From positions 12,654,133 to 12,674,132 of the forward strand of contig NC_057755.1 in assembly GCF_004010195.1 (NCBI RefSeq): a stretch of DNA of 20,000 bases, read 5' to 3'. Shown here piece after piece: positions 855 to 20,000 of the stretch. The position numbers and the translations under genes are program-made. The notes under the pieces are model-generated. The model did not search any database, was not told the origin of the DNA, and saw only the letters and a program-made list of their open reading frames with translations. The DNA is from Chiloscyllium plagiosum (lineage: Eukaryota). Numbering within the stretch: the first letter of the stretch is position 1; every line of letters starts with the position of its first letter.

Positions 855-1263
855 GTAAGTCATTGCTATCAATTACTTTACTTAATTCTAAAATAGACCT
901 TCAAATTGAACTGCACACTCTGCTTTCAAGAATGACAAGCTGACAAGTTTTTTGATAGATATTTTTATTGAAAAAGAAGACTTAAGATTTTTTACAAAAT
1001 TACAAAAATAATACAAACTAGTATGTTCACTTTACAATACAATAACAACCCCAATATGAAATTTTTTAAAAAACTACTTCTCTATTCTACAAATAATCAA
1101 AATATAAAATAGGGTATCATACATTACTAACAATAAACAAATAGGTAAATAAATAACTAAATACATACTCAAAATAGATTTATATCAAGTCCTAACAAAT
1201 CCCACATTTATAAAGGATTCCTCCTCCCAGGAGCCCCCGAACCAGCCAGAACCATTACCACAG

Positions 1264-4200
1264 CTAAGTAAAGGCCCTGGACAATGTGGCCAAAATATCT
1301 GTGTCAGTATAGTTCAAAAAGGGCTGCCATGTTCTATAAAATAATTCAGTTTTTTGGTGCACCATTTTCGTAAGGAAGTCAAGGGGGATATATTCCATGA
1401 CTAAGCTGTACCAGTTTGAAAGTCCTGGGGGACCTTCGGGTACCCAATTCACTAAAATATTTTTACTCGCACAAAAGGAAAGGATAGTGAATAATTTCCT
1501 CCCATATACATCCAAAGAGGGGAAATTTGGGGAGCCCAAGAGTAGGGACACCTGAGTCCAATCCAATCTCCATACCCGAAATCTTTGCCAAGGCATTCGC
1601 TACTCTGTCTCAATACCTAAGGATCTAATGGCATGTCCACAGATAATGTGTAAGAGTACCAACTTCGATTTTGCATTTAGGACACGTTGGAGATGCGCCT
1701 GCCTTGAATTTTGCAAGTCGTTCAGGTGCCACGTGAGCCCTGTGAAATATCTTCAATTGAGTAGCCTGAATTCTGTTACAGATAGACACCTTCCTGGTAT
1801 TTTCCCAGACGTCCTCCCACATTTCTAAGGAGATTTCCAACCCTAGTTCTTGACTTCAGGTTTTATATAACCATTCCATGTCCTTCGATACCTTATTGCA
1901 TAACGGGTGGTAGAGAGTACTGACCGAGGGAGGGTCCATCGGCCGAAGCACACTCCTTTCCCTATCCGATTGCAAGGATAGATTATCAGTGAAGTCTTCT
2001 TTTGTATAAAGTCTCATATTTGAAAATACCGAAAGAGGTCCCTGCTGGGTAGCCCAAACTTCTGGCGTAATTGCTTAAAGGACATCATGAATGCCCCATT
2101 GAACGGAGATACCTCTGGACTCCCAGATTTTGAATATAGCATCAGTCAGCCCTGGCTGAAATCCTAATGTTCCCACTATAGGGTTATAAGGGGAGGATTT
2201 TTTGCAGGTTACCCTCATCTTGTTGCATTATTCTCCAGGCTTTGATTGTATTTAACACAGTAGGGTTTTTACAATAATCCGTAATAACTGTCATCTTGTC
2301 CATAAATAGTAGATTGATCAGAGAACATTTTGCCTGGGAGGCCTCAATATTTAACCAGATTGGATCTCTTGTGACCCACAATCAATCAGCTACATAGGAT
2401 AATAGGGAGCTCAGTTGGTACCTCCTGAAATCCGGAAAGTCCAGTCCTCTCCTTACTTGTGGAAGCTGCAGCTTTCCTAATTTGATAAGGGGCCGTCTAT
2501 GACTCCAAATAAAGGAGCCGAGCCAGCCATAAAGCTTACGCAGCGCCTGCCTCGGCAGCATCAAGGGTATATAAGACGGGGTAAAATATTCATCTCAACT
2601 AAAGCGACTCTGCCTAACCAAGATATCGGGAGATCTTCCCATCGTTGAAGGTCCTGTCTTATTTTCTCCAATAAGTGTGTACAATTGGCTATATATAGCT
2701 GACCAAATGCCGGAGTGATGAAAATACCTAAGTACAGAAAACCTTCTAGTGACCATCGAAAGGGAAAAGAGGATCTGTCCGCAAAACTGGATATACTGGC
2801 AAGACCTCCCAGTGGCATGGCATCTGATTTCATAAAATTGATTTTGTGGTCTGAGAACATACCAAATAAATTGACCACTTGAATTAGGTGGGGCACAGAT
2901 GTCAAAGGATCACTTAAGAAAAGGAGGACTTCATCCGCATAGAGAGTAATTTTGTGCTTGCCTGATCCAACCTCCGGAGCCGATATGTTAGGGTCAGTTT
3001 GTATAGCTTCTGACAACGGCTCAATCACTAGCAAAAATAATAATGGTGAGAGAGGACATCCCTGACGACAGCCCTTGCGACGCTAAAGCTACCCAAACTT
3101 AAACTGTTAATGATCACCACTGCTTTGGGATCATTTATATAACTCATTTAGTAAAAACCTCTCCAACACCAAACCGCTACAGTGTATAAAAAAAGATATG
3201 GCCATTCTACCTGATCGAATGCCTTCTCTGCATCAAGGGAGACCACTAAACTCAGTATTGTTCCCTGTTGGCAGGCTTGTACCTTATTTAAGATTCTTCT
3301 AATGTTATTAGTTGATCTGTGATCCTTTATATACCCCGTCTGGTCTTCTTTTATAATGAATGGTAAGACTCTCTCCAGACTTAATGCTAAATTTGAGAGA
3401 ATTTTAAAATCTACGTTTAACAAGGGTCTATATGAGGAGCAGTCTTCTGGGGTCTTTCCCTTCTTAAGAATGAGAGAAATATTTGCTTCTCTCAGCGAAG
3501 GCGGGAGGCAGCCCTGACTGTGAATAGTTTTATATATATTTATAAGTGGCCTGGCCAGTTCCCTATAAATTCTTTATAAAACTTAGCCTGGACTCTCTCT
3601 GGTCCAGGCGCTTTGCCACTCTGAATCTGCCTCACCACTTCTTGTACTTCCTGGGTTGCCAGGGGGCATTCAAGAATGACACCTGCTCTGAGGGTAGGCC
3701 CAGGAGGGCCAGATTTTTAAAGAAAGACTCCGTCTTCCTCGTTCTGTCCTCAGTCCTGTGACTTATACAATTCAAAATAGTACTTCCTAAAGGCTGCATT
3801 GAGCTTTTTATGATGATAAGTCAAGGTACCAGTACTGTCTCTAATGGATGTAATGGCTTGGGAGCCTTTTTCTTTCTGGTAAGGTACGCTAGAAAGCTGC
3901 CAGGCTTATTACCGTATTCGAATAGCTTCTGCTTTGTGAATAAAATCTCCCTCTTTGTGTTTGAGTAAATGCAGTATTCAAGGTTGCCCTAAGGGCTGTG
4001 ATCCACTGTAGTTTAGTAATGGAGGGCCTATCAACATACGCTGTCACAGTTGCCTTTAGGTAAGCATCGAGTAGACACTGTTGCTCTCCCTTTTTGTCAT
4101 TTCCAGGTTGCAGAATGTTAGATAACCAAGCCTCGCGTGTATGCCTTTGCGGTCTCCCGCATCGTCTAGGGGTTCCTGGCCGTGCCCGAGTTGATATCCC

Positions 4201-4710
4201 AGTAGGTTTTAAATTCCTGCGAAAAATATTTTATGAACTTCTTATCCTTCAGTAAAAAAGGGTCCATATGCCAGTGTTGGGGACCTATGCCATCATCACT
4301 AGTCTTAACCTCCATGTATACTGCGGCATGGTCAGAGATAGTTATATTCCCTATTTTACAGGACAATATAGAGTTCAAAAGGGTCAAGGGGACAAAAAAC
4401 ATATTGATTCTGGTATGGCACTTGTGTGGGTTAGAATAGAAAGTAAAGTCTGTACCCTCTGGGTGGAGACAATTCCACACATCTACCAGCCCCAACTCCC
4501 TATTCAGATCCGCCAGCTGCCTAGATTTCAAAGATATGCCCGCAGAGCTCCTAGATATCCTGTCCGCCTCTGGGTCAATGATACAATTAAAATCTCCCCC
4601 TATAATTGTATGGCAGACCCCAAGAGCCATCAACTTAGAGAACGCTTCCGTTACAAATTTAAAAGGGTGTGCCAGGGGGGCAATAAAGATTCAAAATCCC
4701 ATATTCCTGT
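1264..4710 (-). pseudogene. L1 ORF2 (APE endonuclease, reverse transcriptase, CCHC), frameshifted
   Basis: Fragments: NLYCPP, IIGGDFN, SDHAAV (EN); LNVDFKIL, DQTGYI, SLDAEKAFD, QGCPLSPLLF, YADE in place of YADD (RT); CPKC-x8-H-x4-C near 1630-1680. Stop at 1264. The N-terminal part of the EN domain is absent. Confidence 0.9.
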
Positions 4711-4863
4711 ATGGGAATTCCTTGCTCACAGGGGGCACTACTACCTTCCATTAACCCTGCCATAAGTTCTCCCAGCTAGGGCCCTGCCCTCAGCCCAGGC
4801 GTTACAAAATAAAATAAGTAAATTCCAGTATCTTATAAAACAGAAGTTAAATTAAAAGTGGGT

Positions 4864-4864
<1 letters not shown>

Positions 4865-4913
<49 letters not shown>

Positions 4914-5002
4914 CTCTCTCTCACACTCTCTCTCTCACTCTCTCTCTCTCACTCTCTCTCTCTCACTCTCTCTCTCTCACTCTCTCTCTCTCACTCTCTC
5001 TC
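4865..5002. repeat. Compound (CA)n/(CT)n microsatellite
   Basis: Directly visible dinucleotide run. Confidence 0.97.
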
Positions 5003-5368
5003 TGTGGAAAACTTACGTTCTGTCTGGAAAATGACCCTGAGCTTCTGGTTGCCTGCTACTACAACATACCACCATATTTCCTGGCTAATATTTCCATCTT
5101 GGACATGCTCCGGAGCTCCAGTGAGGCTCAGCACCAGGTGGAAGAAAAACATTTCATTTTTCATTTGAGGATCTTGTAGCCTTCAGAACTCAGTATCAAG
5201 TTCAATAAGTTTTAAACCTGAATACCTTCTTCAATGCCTTTATCTACTCCCACTCCAGACTCGTTATGACATGGGCTGTTTTCAGCACAACCAATCCATT
5301 TTCACCTACTTACGATCCCATTATTAGCTTTTCTTTCTCTTGGTCTTCTATTCCATCCCTTGGCCGAT
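5003..5368 (+). mobile_element. Penelope-like element fragment (GIY-YIG C-terminus plus part of the 3' UTR) nested in the L1 inter-ORF spacer
   Basis: Translates ENDPELLVACYYNIPPYFLANISILDMLRSSSEAQHQVEEKHFIFHLRIL*PSELSIKFN, a decayed VAxHFN...E..LI..LGTL.P.GLN motif; homologous to the frame at 9834. Confidence 0.7.
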
Positions 5369-5440
5369 CTCTTTTTTTCTCTCTCTCTCTTTTTTTCTCT
5401 CTCTCTTTTTTCCTCTCTCTCTTTTTTTTTCTCTCTCTAT
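5369..5440. repeat. (CT)n/poly-T low-complexity tract
   Basis: Directly visible. Confidence 0.9.
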
Positions 5441-5672
5441 CACCTAGATATGCTGTAATATATTCAAATTTACAATCCCAGCAAATATTAAGCAACTCAA
5501 AAAGAAAAACAAACCCACTCAGAGACATTCCCCAATAATCAGATAAACCGCGTGAGCTATAGATAAGACTGAAGAAAGAATAAGGAACGAGCCCCTCCCC
5601 CATTGGGAAGAAGGAAAGACAAAGGAGGGGGGGAGCAAAATAAAGACGTCCATACAGTTCAAGTCTCGCAGT

Positions 5673-6472
5673 CTATTTGAGAGCGTCCACGAATTCTTTT
5701 ACTTTTTCCAGTGATCCAAAGATATATAAAAGATCCTCCATGACTGAAGCCCAGCATTGCCGGATATCGCATGGAATATTGAATATTTAAGTCTTTCAGA
5801 CACTTCTTCGCCTCGTCAAATGCCCTCCTCTTGCGGACCACAACCAGAGAAAAGTACTGATACAACATTATCTTGGAGTCCTTGTATATTGTGGCCTGGG
5901 GATCCTTCCCAAGACTCTGGAGGCCTTAGGCAGCATTTGTTTTTCCCTGTAATGTTGAAGGCAGACCACGACTGGGCAGGGGCGCTGGTCCGACCCGGGC
6001 CTGCGTACAACAACCCGGTGGGCCCGCTCAACCCGTACCCGGCCCAGCTTCAACTTCAATTTCAGCAGCTGTGGGAGCCATTGCTCCAGGAAATCCACAA
6101 GCTAGCCTTCCTCCTCCCAATCGGGAAGGCCCAGCAACCGAATGTTTTTCAGACGACCTCGAGAATGAAGGTCGTCGATATGTTCCTCCAAGGTCCAGAC
6201 TTGTTGCTCCAGAGCCCGGACCTGACCCGCAGATGACTCAGCAGCAGTTTCCGAGGCCGCGGTCCATTGCTCCGCCCCTCCAATATGCTGCCCACGTTTC
6301 TCGATCTCTCAGTCATGCTTCTGCAGCATGACCAAGATCGACTCCCACTGGACCAGGTCTCCTCGATGGATGCATTGCTCTTCTCTCGGAGTTTAACGAA
6401 CTCTGAGATCAGGTTTGCCTCTGCAGGTAAGTCCCCCGAGGTGAAACTACGGGACCCTTTGCCCTTAGTCAT
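5673..6472 (-). pseudogene. L1 ORF1 (Transposase_22-like coiled-coil/RRM/CTD), frameshifted
   Basis: ATG at 6472. Motifs LHSRGRLKNIRLLGLP, VERAHRV, RPCPVVV, KRRAFDEAKK, YSMRYPA, ending EFVDALK* at 5673. Confidence 0.85.
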
Positions 6473-7945: not shown

Positions 7946-8151
7946 GCATAACATTAAAAAATAGGAGCAAGAGTCGACCATCATACTTGTTCCATCTTTC
8001 AACAAGATCATAGTTGAATTGATTATTCAGCCTTCATTTCATTGTCTACCTATTGCTCCATAATCTATGACTCCCACACAGATTAAAAATGAGTCTAACT
8101 CAGCCTTCAATATATTCAATGATTCCATTTCCACTGCTTCCTGACAGCATA

Positions 8152-8408
8152 GGGGTGGCATGGGAGCTCAGTGGTTAGCACTGCTGCCTCACACCTCCAG
8201 GGACCCAGATTTGATTCCACTCTCTGGCGACTGTGTGTGGAGTTTGCAAATTTTCTCAGTGTCCGTGTGAGTTTTTTCCCCATAGTTCAAAGGGTGTGTA
8301 AGCTAGCTGGATTAGCCATGGGGAATGCAGGGTTACAGGGACGTGGGTCTGGATGGGTCGGTGTGGAGCTAATTGGCCTACTTCCACACTGTAGGGATTC
8401 TATGATTC
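8152..8408 (+). mobile_element. tRNA-derived SINE (HE1/V-SINE type), internally deleted
   Basis: A box gagctcagtgg, B-box-like gatttgattcc, V-domain-like tgtgtggagtttgca, tail ccacactgtagggattctatgattc. Confidence 0.85.
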
Positions 8409-8840: not shown

Positions 8841-9134
8841 CAGTGACTCAGTGGATAGAACTGCTGCCTCACAGCACCAGGCACCCAGGTTCGATTCCAG
8901 CCTCAGCTGACTGTGTTGAGTTTGCACATTCTCCCACTGTCTGTGTGGATTTCCTTCCACAGTCCAAAGATAGGCAGGTTAGGTGGATTGGCCATGCTAA
9001 GTTACCCATAGTGTTTAGGGATGTGCAGGCTGGGTGATTTAGCCATAGGAAGTGCAGATTTACCGAGGTAGATTAGAGGAATAGGTATGGGAGGGATGCC
9101 GTTCAGAATGTTGTGAACTTGAGCTGAATGACCT
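8841..9134 (+). mobile_element. tRNA-derived SINE (HE1/V-SINE type)
   Basis: A box tgactcagtgg, B box ggttcgattcc, gagtttgcacattctccc, ccacagtccaaaga...ggttaggtggattggccatgctaa. Confidence 0.85.
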
Positions 9135-9636
9135 AGTTCTGGTCGCCCTATTATAGGAAAGATGTGGATGCTTTGGAGAGGGTTCAGAGGAGATTTACCA
9201 GGATGCTGCCTGCACTGGAGGGTTTATCTTATGAAGAGAGGTTGACTGAGCTCGGACTTTTTCATTGGAGAAAAGGAGGAGGAGAGGGGACCTAATTGAG
9301 GTATACCAGATCATGAGGGGCATAGATAGTCTCTGGCTATCGACTCTATTTCCCAGGGCAGAAATGACTTAACACGAGGGGTCATAGTTTTAATCTGGTT
9401 GGAGGAAAGTATAGAGGGAATGTCAGAGGTGGGTTCTTTACACAGAGTTGTGAGAGCATGGAATGCGTTGCCAGCAGCAGTTGTGGAAGCAAGGTCATTG
9501 GGGACATTTAAGAGACTACTGGACATGCATATGGTCACAGAGATTTGAGGGTGCATACATGAGGATCAATGGTCGGCACAACATCGTGGGCTGAAGGGCC
9601 TGTTCTGTGCTGTACTGTTCTATGTTTCTATGATTC
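9135..9636 (+). mobile_element. CR1-clade LINE, 5'-truncated 3' end
   Basis: FWSPYYRKDVDALERVQRRFTRMLP...YEERLTELGLF; 3' end gggctgaagggcctgttctgtgctgtactgttctatgtttctatg. Confidence 0.9.
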
Positions 9637-9833
9637 TGCTTTTCTATTCTTCCAAACCATGTACAAAACATCACACTTTCTCACATTATATTTCATCTAC
9701 TAAGTTTTTGCCCAGTCAAGTTATCTATATCCCATTTGATTTATCCTTGTCACATGTACTTAAGTACAGTGAAACATTTTGTTTTGTGTGCAGTACAGGT
9801 AGTACATACCTTTAGACAGAGCAAGACATACAA

Positions 9834-10270
9834 CATTTCAACTCCCCCTCCCACTCTGACGAGGACATGGAGGTCCTGGGCCTCCTTCACCGCCGCCTCG
9901 GAACACTTCAACCCCAGGGCATCAATGTGGATTTCAACAGCTTCCTCACTTCCCCTTCCTCCACCTCATCCTAATTTCAAACTTCCAGCCCACACTGTCC
10001 CCTTGACCTGTCCGTCCGACCTGCCTATCTCCTTTTCCACCTATCCACTCCACCCTCTCCTCCCTGACCTATCACCTTCATCTCCTCCCCCACTCACCTA
10101 TTGTACTCTATGCCACTCTCTCCCCACCCCCACCCTCCTCTAGCTTATCTCTCCACGTTTCAGGCTCTCTGCCTTTATTCCTGATGAAGGGCTTTTGCCC
10201 GAAACGTCGATTTTGCTGCTCGTCGGATGCTGCCTGACCTGCTGTGCTTTTCCAGCACCACTGATCCAGA
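9834..10270 (+). mobile_element. Penelope-like element 3' fragment (family A) with hammerhead motif
   Basis: Frame from 9834: HFNSPSHSDEDMEVLGLLHRRLGTLQPQGINVDFNSF (GIY-YIG C-terminus, apparent internal deletion), C-rich UTR, then HHR core. Possible TSD atacaa(c/g)att at 9828 and 10270. Confidence 0.85.
10178..10211 (+). ncRNA. Minimal type I hammerhead ribozyme motif (family A)
   Basis: CUGAUGA-A-GGGC UUUU GCCC-GAAAC-GUC; palindromic ACGU at stem III; stem I only UC/GA. Confidence 0.7.
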
Positions 10271-11284
10271 TACAAGATTACGGCTGCTTAGGTGCACAAA
10301 AGCTAGATCAACATTAGATTTGAAATTAGATAGCAAACAGTAATGGGCCTAGCCCCAAAGCCTGAGCCACTCTACTAAACTGACCCGAGCTGTCATTTCC
10401 TCCCAGCTTGATTGCAGACCACTTGTGCCCGGTGAGTTATCAGGTCCTCTCCTTCCTCTACACATACCTCTAACATGGGTACAGTGCCAGAATCTGAGGA
10501 GCTGCTTTTTTAAAAAAAGTCAGTTCAAGTATTGGGATCTCTTCATAAGTGCCGTGTTTCCTTTTTCTCCTGTACTGTGTGTACTGCAGCTGGGCAAGTA
10601 GCAGTTCATCATTATCTAAAAGCTAAACAGAGTTGGGATAAAGGGAGGAAAGCAAGAGTTTCATGGAAATTATTTGCAGCTTGCATATTATGCTGTACAG
10701 CAGGATCATGGGTGCTGTAGTAAAGTAAAATCATTTAGCAAATATGCAGGTACCAAAAGATTAATCAGTACAGTTTCACCTCAGTGATGTGTGATGTCCT
10801 GACTCAGCATCCCATTGTCACTGCATGCCACAACTCTGTCACAGTTGAAGTTATGATGCATGAAAGGTATATGGAGGTACTGTATATGAAACCTGTGGGA
10901 ACTGGGTGTGAGATGAGCAGTATTGAAATATGTATAAGGGTAGTGAGGTGTCTGGATGTTAGATGTGGAACTTGATTGCCACAGATTAATGATGGTGGTG
11001 TGGTGATTGAAAAGCATGAGATTTTGGTTTGGTGACGAGAAGATATCATTGAAAATGTATTTGCTGCAAAAATCATTAAAGCTCCTTGTACCGCTGCTGC
11101 TGGGTACTCAAGGCTACATTCTGAGAATTGACCACTTTCTGCAGCTTCTCTCTTTTCTCTTTTGAGGATGCTGTTGGCAGCTTTCTGACTGACTGCAAAG
11201 TAAGGCCACACCTCTATCCAATCCACCATGGCATCCATGAATCCAAAGGCCGTCTTCCCTACTCTGAATTTAACAACAGTCTCC

Positions 11285-11479
11285 ATGGAGAGAGAGCAAG
11301 CTAACGTTTCAAGTTTAGATGACTCCTCTTCAGAGCTGAAGTGAAGATGAACAGTCATCTAGATTTGAAACATTAGCTTGCCCTCACATCATGTATGCTA
11401 TCTGACCCTCTGTGATCTCCAACATTTGCTGTTTTCAGTGCAGATTCCGGCATCTGCAGTAATTTGCTCCTACATTTTG
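11285..11479. mobile_element. 195-bp fold-back PLE-derived mini-element (family B) with 16-bp TSD
   Basis: TSD tttaacaacagtctcc at 11269-11284 and 11480-11495. Inverted arms 11284-11324 and 11353-11393 (34/41 match). Confidence 0.85.
11299..11337 (-). ncRNA. Minimal type I hammerhead ribozyme motif (family B)
   Basis: Minus strand: AGCU-CUGAAGA-G-GAGU CAUCUAA ACUU-GAAAC-GUU-AGCU; 4-bp stem I and palindromic AACGUU. Confidence 0.7.
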
Positions 11480-12299
11480 TTTAACAACAGTCTCCTCTAA
11501 TTCAGTGCAACTTCACTTTATAAGGGCCAGAGTCCCTTTAAGACAAGCACACTGTCTGAGCCTTGTACTCACTGAATTCTGCTCACTGAACTGATAGGCA
11601 AACAGCAACTTGTACTCCACTGAAATCAACGCTATAATAGAGTAGGGAGGAGGCAACAATAACTTTACTAGCTAGGCCACAAATCACAACTTCAGACCTT
11701 TTTTTAAATTTATTTAACCAAGTGAGAAAGTAACAAGTGAAGGAGTCAATAAGCCCATAATCTGAATGTCAAACAGTGAAAACATCTCACTGTAAGGGAT
11801 AATTCCTTCTGAGTGGTGCAGTCTCAAATGTCAAACCATCTGGGATTTAAACAGCTCCATATCTTTAATATCCCAAAAGCAATTAAACAAGGCTTGTCTG
11901 ATTCAAATAGTTGGCCACTTTGGAAAGTAACTACTTGACTCTCTCACAAATGAATAAAATGTCATCCCTGTTCAAAAGTAGCTGGATCCCTCCCTCCCAC
12001 TGCAGAGAACCAACATAACTTACATTTGTATCAAGTTAAGCTCACGAAGGTTCTGGGTGTTTTGTGCAGGAGGGAGACTCCTTAAAAGTTAAGGAATAGT
12101 GCAGTTCTTTCAGCGAATTAATTCTATCAGTTGTGCTTCTGTTCTTTTGGAAACATTGATACAAAGTTATAAATAATGTCAGTAAGCAGGGCAAATCTTT
12201 GTGGGTCACACAAGCATAATCTCTCGAACTGATCTCCGTCCTGAACAATTAGTAACAGAAACATTGAGTGATCATAACTACGCTGACAGAAGTCAGTTA

Positions 12300-12466: not shown

Positions 12467-12771
12467 ATTTGCCAGGCGCCTCCAGAAAACCGTGAGACGG
12501 CTAGTCCCCGACTGTGAGGTCCGGTTTCTCCTTTCGGAAAGTGGCAGTGGAAAAGGTGCTGCCATGGTCACTGCAGTGGCCGCAAGGCTTGTTTCACAAC
12601 GCAAAGAAATAGATGAAACACTTGCATCGTTCACACTCACGCAAGAGCAGCTGTTTGAGGTGAAGAAGAGAATGAGAATGGAGATGGAGCTTGGTTTAAA
12701 GAAGAAATCTCATGATACTGCAACAGTGAAAATGTTGCCAACCTTTGTTCGCAGCACCCCCGATGGAACAG
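12467..12771 (+). CDS. HK1: Hexokinase coding exon (equivalent to HK1 exon 10; inter-domain linker helix)
   Basis: Acceptor ctcttacAG at 12465-12466 and donor AG|GTACCC at 12772. 305 bp, in frame with the previous exon (CA|A = Gln). Encodes [41 protein letters not shown]...[15 protein letters not shown]. Confidence 0.93.
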
Positions 12772-13064: not shown

Positions 13065-13715
13065 AATGTGCACATATACCAGTCCCTTAAGGTATCAGGC
13101 CAGATGGATAAAGTGATTAAGAAGGTTTGAGGTATTTATTAGTCGTGGCATAGATTTTGAGAGCAGGGAGGTAGTTGCTGGAACTATATATTAAAAAAAA
13201 AAGTACTGAGTGCAGTTCTGGAATCCACATTATAGAAGTGGTGTGATAGCATTGGAGAGGGGGCAGAGGAGATTTACCAGGATTTTGCCAGGACTGCAGG
13301 GTTTCAGTTGTGTAAAGAAATTGGACAGACTGGGGTATTTTTCCCTACAGCAGAGGAGATTAAGAGGAGGCAGAATTGAGATATATAAAATTATGAGGGG
13401 CATGGATAGGGTAGACAGAAACTTTCTCCATGGAGAGATCAATGGCCAGAGCATAGATATAAGGTAAGAGGCTGAATGTTTCGAGGAGAGGTGAGGAAAA
13501 TCTTTTTCACTCATGGGTGATGTGGATCGGAACTCACTGCCTATTGAGGATGGTGGAGGCAACAACTCTCAACATTTAAGAAGTATTTAGATGTGCCAAG
13601 ACAAACAATACAATGGGCCAAGTGCTGGAAAATGGGATTAGAATAGATAGGTGGTTATTTTTATTCCGCATGGACGTGATAATCTGAAAGCCCTTTTTCT
13701 GTGCTGTGGACCCCT
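13065..13715 (+). mobile_element. CR1-clade LINE 3' fragment
   Basis: VQFWNPHYRSGVIALERGQRRFTRILPGL...LDRLGYFSLQQRRLRGGRIEIYKIMRGMDRVD; ends ttctgtgctgtggacccctatg. Confidence 0.88.
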
Positions 13716-14259
13716 ATGCTGGAGAGAAAAAGATGGGGAGGAATGAAGCTGTGAAAAGACTTAAGAATAAGTATGAGAATTTTAAAGTAGAGGCATTGTT
13801 TAACTGGGAGTCGGTATAGATCAAAGAAAATGGGTGAGCATGATTTGATGAGCGTTCGAACACGCACAATAGAGGTTTGCTTGTCGTCAGGGTGCCAAAG
13901 GGTGGGATGTGGGAAACCAGCCAGGAATATGTTGGAACAGTCAAGTTTAGAGATTGAGAAGGTACAAGTGAGGATTTCAACAGCAGATGCAATGTGGCAG
14001 CAAAGTAGTCAGGTGATCTTACACAGGTGGACATAGTTGGTCTAGATGATGTAAATATGTGATTGGAAGTACATCTTGGGCTGAGATTAGCCTCAGACGT
14101 TCGACAGGGTGAGAGAGAGAGAGAATTGTTGACTGGGCAATGAATTTTAGGACAGGGATCAAAGAAACTTCTGGTTCAGTTCTGGACATCAGGAAATTAT
14201 TCTGGAAGTTTAAAGAGAGGAACAGTTGAGAGGTGGTGATGTCAGCCTGTGTGGATGAT

Positions 14260-14456
14260 GTTAAAAATCACACAACACCAAGTTATAGTCCAACAGGTTT
14301 AATTGCAAGCACACTAGCTTTCAGAGCAACACTCCTTCATCAGGTGCGTCGCTCCGAAAGCTAGTGTGCTTCCAATTAAACCTGTTAGACTATAACCTGG
14401 TGTTGTGTGATTTTTAACTTTGTACACCCCAGTCCAACACCGGCATCTCCAAATCA
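14260..14456. mobile_element. 197-bp fold-back PLE-derived mini-element (family C) with 12-bp TSD
   Basis: TSD tgtgtggatgat at 14248-14259 and 14457-14468. 68-bp inverted arms 14260-14327 and 14351-14418 (64/68 match). Confidence 0.9.
14312..14346 (-). ncRNA. Minimal type I hammerhead ribozyme motif (family C)
   Basis: Minus strand: CAC-CUGAUGA-A-GGAGU GUU GCUCU-GAAAG-CUA-GUG; stem I CAC/GUG and palindromic AGCU. Confidence 0.75.
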
Positions 14457-14689
14457 TGTGTGGATGATAACATCAAGTTTTGGGCCTCTTTGCTGAGAGG
14501 CAGCATGTAAATGAGAAATAGAGCTCCAAGAATAGATCCGTGAGGGAAATCAGAAGTATGGGAACGAGAGGAGCAACCACATAACCAATTACAAACTTGT
14601 AAGGTATTCTTGGGTCACATCCAAAGAAGTTCCATAATTCTCCAAAGAAATACACTTAGTTCAAAACTAGTCTTACCACGTATGCTTTG

Positions 14690-16560
14690 CCTACTTCAGT
14701 CCTGGGCTCCAAAAATCCAGCTTGAGCTGAGGCACCTGATGACTTGAATGCCTGACTGCCACTGTGACCCTAATGTGCATGAGAAAAAGTCAGCAGGCAT
14801 TTGGAATGGTTTGAGTTTAATAAGGAGTTCATTTACCTTATGTTGTGTACTAAGTGCATTTAAATACAATATCCTCAGTCCTACATTGACCATACCCCTT
14901 TTGCTTTCCCTTCGCCTTTTCGTAGTTGTCCCCTTATTGCTGTACCTGAAGTTAGATTGCTGATCCTTTCCATTATCTGTCCAATTACTTGTTCTGCAAA
15001 TCTTAATAACCTCTCCTGAGCCTCCAACTAATTTAAAGTCTTTGTGACTTCAATTTGTACCATTGGTTTGTTTCATTTATAATGAATGCTTCATGCATTA
15101 AGATATAAAGACTTTAAGTCTGCTTGTTTGATTATCACATTTCCCCATACTTTTATGGTTCCTTTGCAGAAGATTAGATACCCTACAGCGTGGAAACAGG
15201 CCCTTCGGCCCAACCAGTCCACACCGGCCCTCCGACGAGTAACTCACCCAGACCCATTTCCCTCTGACTAATGCACCTAACACTATGGACAATTTAGCAT
15301 GGCCGATTCACCTGACCTGCACATCTTTAGACTGTGGGAGGAAACCGGAGCACCCGGAGGAAACCCACGCAGGCACGGGGAAAATGTGCAAACTCCACAC
15401 AGTCGCCCAAGGTTGGATTTGAACCTGGGACCCTGGTGCTGTGAGGCAGCAGGGCTAACCACTGAGCCACCATGCCACCCTGATGACATACATATAGTCT
15501 GTACCTTTTATTTTATGGTAACTATCAGTCCCATGACTAACCAGTAGTTCAACCTTATCTTTTATGTTTGGTTTTACAATTTTCATGGGAGTGAACAGCG
15601 CCCCCCCCCCCCATGTTCTTCACTATTTACTTTAAAGTGCTCTCTCCAACCCACTGTTATGCAATTTGCCAGGATTCTGATCCAAGAATGATTCCGATGG
15701 ATCCTGTCCCATCAGAACAGTTCCTTCCTTCCTCAGTACTAGTGCCCATGTCCTGTGAATTCAAACCCGTTTTTCCCACTCCAATCTTTGAGCAACATAT
15801 TTGCCTCCCTAATCTTGTTACCATGTCAATTAACAGATGGCTTAGATAGTAATTTGGCGATTATATCCTTTTTGATTCTGCTTTTTAATGTTGCCTCTCA
15901 CTGTTTATATTTCCTCAGCATAACCTGTTTCCTCTTTCTACCTCTATTATTGGTACCTTCATGGACCAAGACAACAGGACCTTTCCGTTTGCACTCCAAA
16001 TTCCTCTAAAGCCCAGATGTGATGCCTTGATCCTGGGAACCAGGCAGGCAACACTGCCTTCAGACTCTTAATCCTGGCCGCACAACGATTCTGATTAGAG
16101 TTAGATTTCTCGTTTCTACCTCCTCTTGAATGCCTCCCTATACCATGGTGCTGTGGTCAGTTTGCTCATCCTCTCTACAGCTCGACTGTCATGCAAACGG
16201 GGAGCAGGCATCTGAAGTCTGTTAGACAAATTCAAGGGCTGAGACACCTTTAGCACTACCCCCCCCTACGTTCCTTACCTGCCTCACTTATAGTCACACC
16301 CTCCTGTCGCTGACCACTGACAGATTTCGGGGTTGTTGATCGAAGAGGTGTGACCACTTCCTGAAGCATAGCATCCAGGTAACTTTTCCCTTCTTGTGGT
16401 GTTCAAAGCTCAGACTCCAGCTCATCAGCTCTGAGGTGGAGTTCCTCATGCAACCAATATTTGCTGCTGATGTGTTCACTATGAACTACAGTGGGGTCCA
16501 CTAGCTCTCACATTGATCTTATTTATTAGTTCTTAGTTTGTTTTTTTTTAAATTTCCTAC
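14690..16560 (-). mobile_element. CR1 5' region (ORF1 esterase-type plus start of ORF2 endonuclease), decayed, interrupted by a SINE
   Basis: Minus-strand motifs HISSKYWLHEELHLRADELESEL (about 16410-16475), CCLPG (about 16040), PVVLVHEGTNN (about 15945-15980) and LRILYLNALSTQHKVNEL (about 14825-14880). Confidence 0.7.
15172..15480 (-). mobile_element. Full-length tRNA-derived SINE (HE1/V-SINE type)
   Basis: Minus strand GGGTGGCATGGTGGCTCAGTGGTTAGC, B box GGTTCAAATCC, V-domain TGTGTGGAGTTTGCACA...CCGGGTGCTCCGGTTTCCTCCCACAGTC, and a CR1-like tail GGGCCGAAGGGCCTGTTTCC. Confidence 0.92.
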
Positions 16561-18603: not shown

Positions 18604-18795
<192 letters not shown>

Positions 18796-18912: not shown

Positions 18913-19645
18913 AAAAGAACACAGGAACAGGGCCTTCAATCACCAAGTCTGTGCTGATGCACAATGCCTTTCTAAGCTAAAATCTTTTTTTCCTCTACAT
19001 GATCTGTATTTGTCTATTCCCTGCCAACCAAGACGCCTCTTAAACATTGCTATTGTATCTACTCCTCCCACCTCCTCTGGTCATGCATTCCAGGCACTTA
19101 CCATCCTCTGTGTAAAAGAATACTTGTGTCTCACATCTTTCTCCTTTTTACCTTAAACCTGCTAATTAATATTTCTATCCTGGGTAACAGACTCCGATTA
19201 TCCATTCTATCCATGCCTCTTATAACTTTGTAAACTTAATCAGGTCACCCCTCAGCCTCCTACGTTCAAATCCAAACAAACCAGGTTTGTCCAATCTCTC
19301 CTCATAGCTTATACCCTCCAATCTTGGTAACATCCTGGTAAACCTTTTCTTTACCCTTTCCAAAGCCTCTGCACTCTTCTGGTAGTTTGGCAACCAAAAC
19401 TGTACACACTATTCCAAATGTGGCCTAACTCAAGTTCTGTACAGCTGCAATATGACTTTCTGATCTTTACCCTGTAAGCCCTGACTGATGAAGGCAACCA
19501 TGCCTCACCTTGACCACCATCTCCACTTTCAGGGAACTGTGGATTTGTATGCATAGATTCCTCTATATGTTAATGCATCTAAGGGTTCTATCATTTGCTG
19601 TGTACTTCCCTCCTGTATTAGATCTTCCAAAATGTATCACCTTAT
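18913..19645 (-). mobile_element. CR1-clade LINE 3' fragment
   Basis: Antisense to VRPHLE*CVQFWLPNYQKSAEALERV...FTRMLPRLEGISYEERLDKPGLF; homologous to 9135-9636 and 13065-13715. Confidence 0.85.
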
Positions 19646-19679
19646 CTTTATATTGATGAAATCAATAGTTCATATTTGT

Positions 19680-19772
19680 CTTAGAATCATATAGCATGGA
19701 AACAGACCTTCAGCCCATGCTGAACATAATCCCAAACTAAACTTAGTCCCACCTGCCTGATCCAGGACCATA
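19680..19772 (-). mobile_element. CR1/SINE-type 3' tail fragment interrupted by the PLE copy
   Basis: agaatcatatagcatggaaacagaccttcagccc resembles the reverse-complement tails at 15172 and 18913. Confidence 0.55.
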
Positions 19773-20000
19773 AGGTAAAAACAATGACATGTAGATGCTG
19801 GAAACCAGATTCTGGATCAGTGGTGCTGGAAGAGCACAGCAATTCAGGCAGCATCCAAGGACAGGCAAAATCGACGTTTCGGGCAAAAGCCCTTCATCAG
19901 GAATAAAGGCAGAGAGCCTGAAGCGTGGAGAGATAAGCTAGAGGAGGGTGGGAGTGGGGATAGAGTAGCATAGAGTACAATAGGTCAGTGGGGGAGGAGA
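19773..20000 (-). mobile_element. Penelope-like element 3' end (family A), runs off the window
   Basis: Reverse complement of 19811-20000 aligns ungapped to 10081-10270 with 13 mismatches in 190 bp (manual count). Confidence 0.9.
19870..19903 (-). ncRNA. Minimal hammerhead motif (family A, second copy)
   Basis: Identical to 10178-10211 across the core. Confidence 0.7.

Follow-up and report, generated by a model that had tools for sequence, protein, structure and literature searches.

What kind of insertion leaves a nearly perfect 197-bp hairpin with a hammerhead ribozyme motif inside a hexokinase intron of Chiloscyllium plagiosum, and does the ribozyme itself set the ends of such an element? 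A preliminary description of this locus had argued that it does, with ribozyme-defined RNA ends and fold-back or twin priming producing a reproducible insertion type. We analysed the locus within a window of 20,000 nucleotides (NC_057755.1, positions 12,654,133 to 12,674,132 of the forward strand), and all positions given below are those of the window.

Anatomy of the insert and its hammerhead

The insert, called element A here, is flanked by two copies of TGTGTGGATGAT, an exact 12-bp direct repeat at 14248-14259 and 14457-14468 for which the rough probability of a chance occurrence is about 1e-4. The perfect 12-bp target-site duplication (TSD) described earlier was confirmed as an exact repeat; no empty allele was seen among the dataset sequences covering 14130-14700, and the TSD is read from the repeat. 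Between the two copies lie 197 bp (14260-14456) made up of two arms (14260-14327 and 14351-14418) that match at 64 of 68 positions, a 23-nt loop (14328-14350) that includes the reverse complement of CUGAUGA, and a 38-nt tail (14419-14456). These measurements had all been given correctly, as had the presence in the loop of the CUGAUGA half of a minus-strand ribozyme and the start of the plus arm inside stem II, where the direct copy begins at 14346. When mismatches were allowed the overlap of the arms extended to 77 nt at 91% (14260-14336 against 14342-14418), indicating that decayed arm and a 5-nt microhomology round a 5-nt loop make up most of the 23-nt "loop". Each arm has sequence that is missing from the other, and the 197-bp element is two short back-to-back copies of the ribozyme-bearing end of a Penelope-like element (PLE). 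The features of the insert and the neighbouring exons are:

12467-12771, plus strand: hexokinase exon upstream of the host intron (Pfam PF00349, E 1e-10; AG/GT borders)
14248-14259, no strand: left copy of the TSD, exact direct repeat
14260-14346, minus strand: inverted, 5'-truncated, tail-less copy of the PLE end (pLTR), ending 2-3 nt upstream of the hammerhead core
14310-14348, minus strand: minimal type I hammerhead from the motif scan, with features as in the available parts of PMC4209133; cleavage predicted
14342-14346, no strand: junction microhomology, AGGTG here against AGGAG in the family (4/5), pairing with 14332-14336 round a 5-nt loop
14346-14418, plus strand: direct, 5'-truncated copy of the PLE end, beginning inside stem II and lacking CUGAUGA
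14419-14456, plus strand: PLE "tail" of 38 nt, with the motif CC(A/G)GCATCTNCA common to elements B and C
14457-14468, no strand: right copy of the TSD, the first 2 nt of which probably match the template too
18623-18771, plus strand: hexokinase exon downstream of the host intron (Pfam PF00349, E 1.2e-12)

On the minus strand the hammerhead runs from the 5' strand of helix I (14348-14344) through CUGAUGA (14343-14337), an extra A (14336), stem-loop II (14335-14323), GAAA (14322-14319) and a palindromic AGCU to the 3' strand of helix I (14314-14310). The predicted cut falls between 14315 and 14314, and its equivalent in the right arm between 14363 and 14364. A relaxed minimal-hammerhead scan of the window returned two matches, both on the minus strand (14343 and 11333), and none in each of 100 block shuffles; the scan missed both family C cores and is not exhaustive. 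Rfam hammerhead models gave no match up to E 1. As proposed earlier, the hairpin carries a hammerhead motif on the minus strand; it is of the minimal type I, with the CUGANGA / GAAA / UH core, the extra base before stem II and the palindromic helix III stub all present. In the available parts of PMC4209133, minimal hammerheads in PLE pLTRs are described as mostly solo, in some cases on opposite strands, and inactive as monomers. Element A shares with these the CUGANGA and GAAA boxes, the extra nucleotide before stem II, the palindromic 15.2-16.2 and the short helix I, as well as solo motifs left by truncated PLEs and opposite-strand motifs lying nearby. It differs in that its second motif is only half present and in the change of G10.1-C11.1 to G-U.

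This conserved pair is lost because C11.1 is U in the inverted copy (14323), while the direct arm retains C. Changes occurred at 14323, 14328 and 14331, in each case at a CpG; one is in the loop and one weakens G10.1-C11.1. Two mismatches outside the ribozyme (14281, 14291/14387) likewise give G-U on the minus strand. Since any C-to-T change in a G-C pair yields G-U, these pairs are no evidence of selection. The C-to-T changes in stem II that leave G-U pairs had been seen correctly, but as a sign of kept function they do not hold up against CpG decay, a change in the loop and the hit on G10.1-C11.1. Only 44-73% of the depth at the three CpG positions carried the family letter, and the letters found here may stem from the subfamily rather than from decay. 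When the minus strand was folded, forcing hammerhead helices I and II cost 39 kcal/mol (-99.8 against -138.8 kcal/mol). The host sense strand carries no ribozyme, since the direct copy is without CUGAUGA, and an antisense ribozyme locked in the long predicted stem should not cut the hexokinase pre-mRNA.

The ends of the arms bear directly on the role of the ribozyme. Both arms cross the predicted cut, the right arm starting 18 nt upstream of it and the left arm ending 31-32 nt upstream of it. Neither template can therefore have been cut there, unless it was re-ligated, and the claim that ribozyme cleavage defined the RNA ends was not supported, given these 18-nt and 31-32-nt extensions.

Penelope-like families in the window and in sequence datasets

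Element A is very probably a dead insertion, truncated in both of its copies, of a PLE that carried an endonuclease. No ORF was found in family A, and its assignment to PLEs was made from motifs, layout and a link to another family in the window, family C. Families B and C in the window have the same hammerhead layout as A, and the tail motif was found three times in the window, once per family and each time 79-84 nt after the hammerhead GAAA. The first of two family C copies (9837-10270) is tail-less and holds a C-terminal GIY-YIG remnant that is interrupted by an in-frame gap of some 15 codons; no TSD of at least 7 bp was found for it. The second copy (19777-20000) has a tail. At 9837-9971, 45 codons are retained that match shark proteins from Rhincodon and Stegostoma (4 matches, 2 relevant); the other two, P0001 and P0004, were dropped as unrelated repeat proteins. 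The shark protein P0005, reached through this remnant, scored above the Pfam cut-off for GIY-YIG (23.2 against 22.6 bits) and below it for RVT_1 (22.7 against 29.6), and by eye it has a cysteine motif between the RT and GIY-YIG domains, like the one described for Neptune. At its end, P0006 resembles by eye a translated family C hammerhead, and a PDB search with P0006 returned 0 matches. Neither the family C remnant nor a 41-codon frame through the left arm gave a match in word-based protein searches.

The layout of element A is also that of known insertions. The available parts of PMC8557442 describe PLE inserts as an inverted truncated copy with a 30-40-bp tail, those of PMC3846280 report inverted pLTRs with a 31-bp tail, 8-10-bp TSDs and microhomology, and those of PMC8969392 list inverted pLTRs with short extensions as ordinary PLE features. 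Element A agrees with these endonuclease-bearing (EN+) insertions in its head-to-head inverted 5'-truncated copy, the tail at one end, the TSD, the microhomology at the 5' junction and the partial tandems of its family. It differs in that both copies are shorter than 120 nt and ORF-less and that its TSD is 12 bp against 8-10 bp in rotifers. The layout is thus already published for PLEs (PMC8557442 and PMC3846280, available parts) and is not a novel insertion type; the preliminary description had itself allowed that the sequence might be an ordinary PLE terminus, and this is largely what was found. In the literature covered, which left most subscription journals as well as Repbase and Dfam outside, we found no paper whose subject is shark PLE hairpin stubs or the position of the junction relative to the hammerhead.

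Element B (11284-11479; 11269-11495 with flanks) is a second PLE hairpin stub, 196 bp long with a 15-16-bp TSD; on its minus strand the hammerhead core lies at 11333. The two arms agree at 83% over 41 nt. The unique 3' part measures 86 nt, and it is this 3' stretch, not a single tail, that the inverted arm misses. Elements A and B had been said to match in architecture and size; this was borne out for total length (197 and 196 bp) but not for the unique 3' part (38 against 86 nt). In both elements the longer arm halts shortly before the hammerhead core, 2-3 nt upstream of it in A and about 13 nt in B, which agrees with the earlier placing of the inversion at the ribozyme, but the arms of A do not end at the cut. 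Both family C copies extend far beyond the core.

Datasets were mapped to 14130-14700 for 4 of 24 runs (X1, X13, X19 and X22), of which X13 comes from a second organism. In X1, 69,440 of 19,387,400 contigs aligned to this region, and in X13 71,740 of 35,358,582. Summed depth, which is not a copy number, was about 9 in the flanks and rose to millions inside the insert. The family of element A is a very abundant dispersed repeat. At 14345 the family letter is A (213045 of 216257 depth in X1) and this copy has T. Among the matches listed for X1 (18 of 753 rows), contigs left the family for unrelated flank at 14456, 14457 and 14458 (708, 1175 and 1084 contigs) and at 14421 (417 contigs). Loose ends at 14260 came from 673 contigs among the matches listed, a figure that mixes tail-less ends with tail-bearing copies aligned to the left arm. 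These pile-ups indicate two 3' end sites for the family, separated by 35-40 nt, and since its copies end at 14456, 14457 and 14458, the TG at 14457-14458 seems to be family sequence as well. Direct partial tandems were found in X13, where among the matches listed 14420, 14437, 14451 and 14456 were joined back to 14388-14397. In X13 a single contig runs from the tail into the right flank (14435-14683, with 8 other letters and 1 gap). It has 22 letters inside the element, under the required 31, and we tentatively regard the insertion as shared with the second organism.

The preliminary description had placed the inversion at a fixed point. Joints were read from the best 15 of 360 and the best 12 of 319 rows by support, a small and non-random part, after exclusion of 3 rows of table 5 without a left-to-right skip and 5 direct-tandem rows of table 5c. 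Inversion joints of the family fell at many positions among the matches listed. In 12 of the 14 left-to-right joints among them the right arm started 13-42 nt downstream of the cut. With the first base of the core as reference, the right arm began at +7 in one of the joints listed, at +31, which is 2 nt past the cut, in one, and at +42 to +71 in 12. Two left arms among the 14 reached the hammerhead core. Six of the 14 broke at 14305, beside the odd letter of this copy at 14306, and the left reach of those six is not readable. As identical junctions collapse in contigs, a joint like that of element A is invisible, and the counts show spread rather than frequency. A fixed inversion point was not upheld by this spread, and a hotspot at the hammerhead is possible.

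Three further patterns were seen in the family. Tail-to-tail joints at 14420-14458 occurred in 6 contigs of X1 and 7 of X13, and joints from the tail end to the left-arm start (14456 back to 14260) in 3 contigs of X1 and 1 of X13, in both cases among the matches listed; these represent either neighbouring or nested insertions or tandem hairpin units. A family joint at 14280-14342 contains a 20-nt run in which GAAGGA, the sequence at stem II's start, is repeated and which looks like slippage at the ribozyme during joining. Pattern scans of genome contigs returned 5 and 1 bacterial loci, taken from their titles as chance matches, and scans for further copies returned 0 in viral contigs and 0 and 0 in metagenome contigs.

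A short, non-coding element with a long inverted repeat, a TSD and high copy number could be taken for a MITE or a foldback DNA transposon with long terminal inverted repeats. On the right side, however, the inverted repeat is not terminal, as the 38-nt tail lies outside it. The family also has direct partial tandems with variable truncation and joints and no uniform unit, and a PLE-type hammerhead and tail motif are present. A transposon of this kind is largely refuted already and appears extremely improbable. Such hairpins can be mis-filed as MITEs or miRNA precursors. The family is of modest importance; its abundance and shortness allow genome-wide counting of junctions, tails and TSDs.

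Mechanism of insertion

That the hairpin came from a retrotransposed insertion by fold-back or double priming had been suggested earlier, and our results support this in general. On our preferred reading the hairpin is a by-product of insertion. Both outer ends of element A are element 3' ends, one for each family end site, and each arm has arm-specific sequence, which makes two primings the simplest reading. We lean slightly toward element A having been made in one event by target-primed reverse transcription (TPRT). Taken whole, the best explanation is a PLE insertion through one TPRT event from two primings, which we hold to be moderately probable. The PLE protein would nick both target strands 12 bp apart, as the TSD suggests. 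One nick would prime at the start site at the tail end and give the right arm with its tail, while the other would prime at an inner start site 38 nt away and give the left arm, which has no tail. Our family data show the two end sites, and their use as starts of reverse transcription (RT) is shown only in an anole PLE. Judging from the sequence, both templates would have been uncut at this hammerhead. The longer cDNA would then halt just upstream of the core and join the other arm via the AGG(T/A)G microhomology, either by annealing of the two cDNAs or by snap-back followed by annealing, and CpG and other changes would accumulate later. In L1 twin priming, two different parts of one RNA are copied. 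Element A resembles its products in the TSD-flanked inversion and the microhomology at the joint, and differs from them in that both of its arms copy the same 73-77 nt.

An experimental comparison is offered by the Anolis Poseidon PLE (PAc). In the available parts of PMC11167929, PAc nicks and extends both strands in vitro and RT starts at two sites that bound the tail; uncut RNA is the main substrate, hammerhead mutants leave insertion unaffected and no reads end at the cut. Element A is alike in having two end sites that bound the tail and a template uncut at the hammerhead, and two-strand nicking fits its two outward-facing 3' ends. It differs in that its target lacks the ATT-type site preferred by the anole enzyme, which counts against the proposed mechanism, and in that the equivalent ATG opens no ORF (stop after 8 codons, by eye). 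The main text of that paper, as far as available, gives no inverted-copy model, and the available parts of PMC8557442 call the origin of PLE tandem and inverted structures unresolved.

A single template could also give such a hairpin if the tail-bearing strand folded back just upstream of the hammerhead and self-copying made a full hairpin of it, one tail then being trimmed during integration by the endonuclease or by repair. AGGTG at the end of the left-arm strand (14346) can pair with CTCCT (14332-14336), and copying from there gives the exact start of the right arm. Snap-back of this strand thus gives the same junction, and the tail then calls for priming a second time or for trimming. The subfamily letters do not differ between the arms (T at 14302/14376, a GTC-type loop and no 2-nt loss at 14364), which suits fold-back, and with these letters one template is not distinguishable from two. 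PMC3846280 proposed self-priming, and PMC8557442 proposed that the endonuclease resolves the tail (available parts of both). The predicted snap-back is weak, however (-0.8 kcal/mol, z -0.32), and 58 of 200 shuffles were as good. The tail-less end is a frequent family end site, which two RT starts explain without trimming, and in element B the missing 86 nt do not correspond to one tail. We therefore consider self-copying of one template unlikely.

The preliminary description had instead let ribozyme cleavage set the RNA ends, making the hairpin unit of about 197 nt, perhaps as a retrozyme-like circular RNA, a reproducible mobile entity. The letters of the catalytic core are intact, elements A and B are similar in total size with junctions near the core, a few contigs join 14456 back to 14260, and ligated circles were proposed as PLE templates in the available parts of PMC4209133. 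Against this, neither arm ends at the cut, and in the anole data (PMC11167929, available parts) no reads do. The element has one complete core only, whereas minimal hammerheads are inactive as monomers (PMC4209133, available parts) and retrozymes are built as tandem repeats. In the long stem the core is sequestered, the joints listed are scattered, and A and B reach equal size from different parts. The non-LTR retrozymes of the available parts of bioRxiv 10.64898/2026.07.22.740005 are likewise short, non-coding and PLE-related with a type I hammerhead, but they consist of direct tandem units that each carry a hammerhead, whereas element A is a single inverted pair. A mobile hairpin unit is accordingly improbable.

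Within the preferred reading of two primings in one TPRT event, the nearness of the junction to the core may have a further cause, which we put forward as a rather doubtful possibility. The template of the stub would be a short RNA that begins upstream of the hammerhead, by a few bases, at a pLTR start or a splice boundary and not at the ribozyme cut. Run-off cDNA would then meet the ribozyme's own near-inverted repeat (the helix I strand with C3-U4 against the 5' strand of stem II) and produce a recurrent junction hotspot. If this is true, with one nick priming per RT start site, it would explain the inverted copy and the one-sided tail of PLEs together, and shark genomes would offer many thousands of natural products for testing.

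Host intron and neighbouring repeats

Three exons in the window match Pfam hexokinase models. The insert, on the sense strand of the gene, starts 1489 nt (the TSD 1477 nt) past a hexokinase exon, and the next exon follows 4167 nt after the insert. The earlier claim of a hairpin in the host pre-mRNA about 1.5 kb past an exon agrees with this distance and with folding, in which the host-sense strand of the insert is predicted to form a long stem (-106.8 kcal/mol) with A-C mismatches. The putative-RNA contig set X19 contained 2,317 pieces of the family among 436,203, as contigs that show no start, end, strand or editing. In the raw-read run X22, 0 of 8,328,510 reads were placed, with about 6 in 100 of the run sampled, which is no test of circular RNA.

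The stem and its mismatches, together with an insertion that may be common to the second organism, would suit a regulatory hairpin used by the host as a miRNA precursor or as an editing or splicing element of the hexokinase pre-mRNA. The arms decay without compensation, however, and the element is deep intronic (1.5 and 4.2 kb from the exons) and encloses no exon. Rfam miRNA models gave 4 matches on the element, all under the gathering score (65.3 against 89, 50.1 against 81, 48.4 against 94). A miRNA precursor was rejected on these scores, which below threshold reflect any long hairpin, and host use of the hairpin in general is very improbable. An Rfam match to BTE at 16016-16083 was a chance hit (E 0.96, 21.5 bits against 45). 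As a single copy, element A matters little, being a decayed PLE stub deep in an intron; hairpins of this kind may add much intronic dsRNA to shark transcriptomes.

Other repeats in the window were also noted. Parts of the two family C copies (10081-10270 and 19811-20000) are inverted relative to each other, are 93% complementary over 190 nt and enclose the exons at 12467-12771 and 18623-18771; this pair could favour back-splicing or exon skipping. Three related SINE-like copies (8148-8279, 8843-9046 and 15242-15485) are about 80-85% alike, the third being inverted, and are putatively a tRNA-derived shark SINE. Diverged 3' fragments of a LINE-like repeat, presumably CR1/L2, lie at 9135-9640, 13214-13720 and 19207-19722. 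By eye, a long broken element that looks L1-like lies at about 960-4800 and 5650-6450 on the minus strand, interrupted by a CA/CT microsatellite (about 4865-5002) and by a CT-rich tract (5330-5440).
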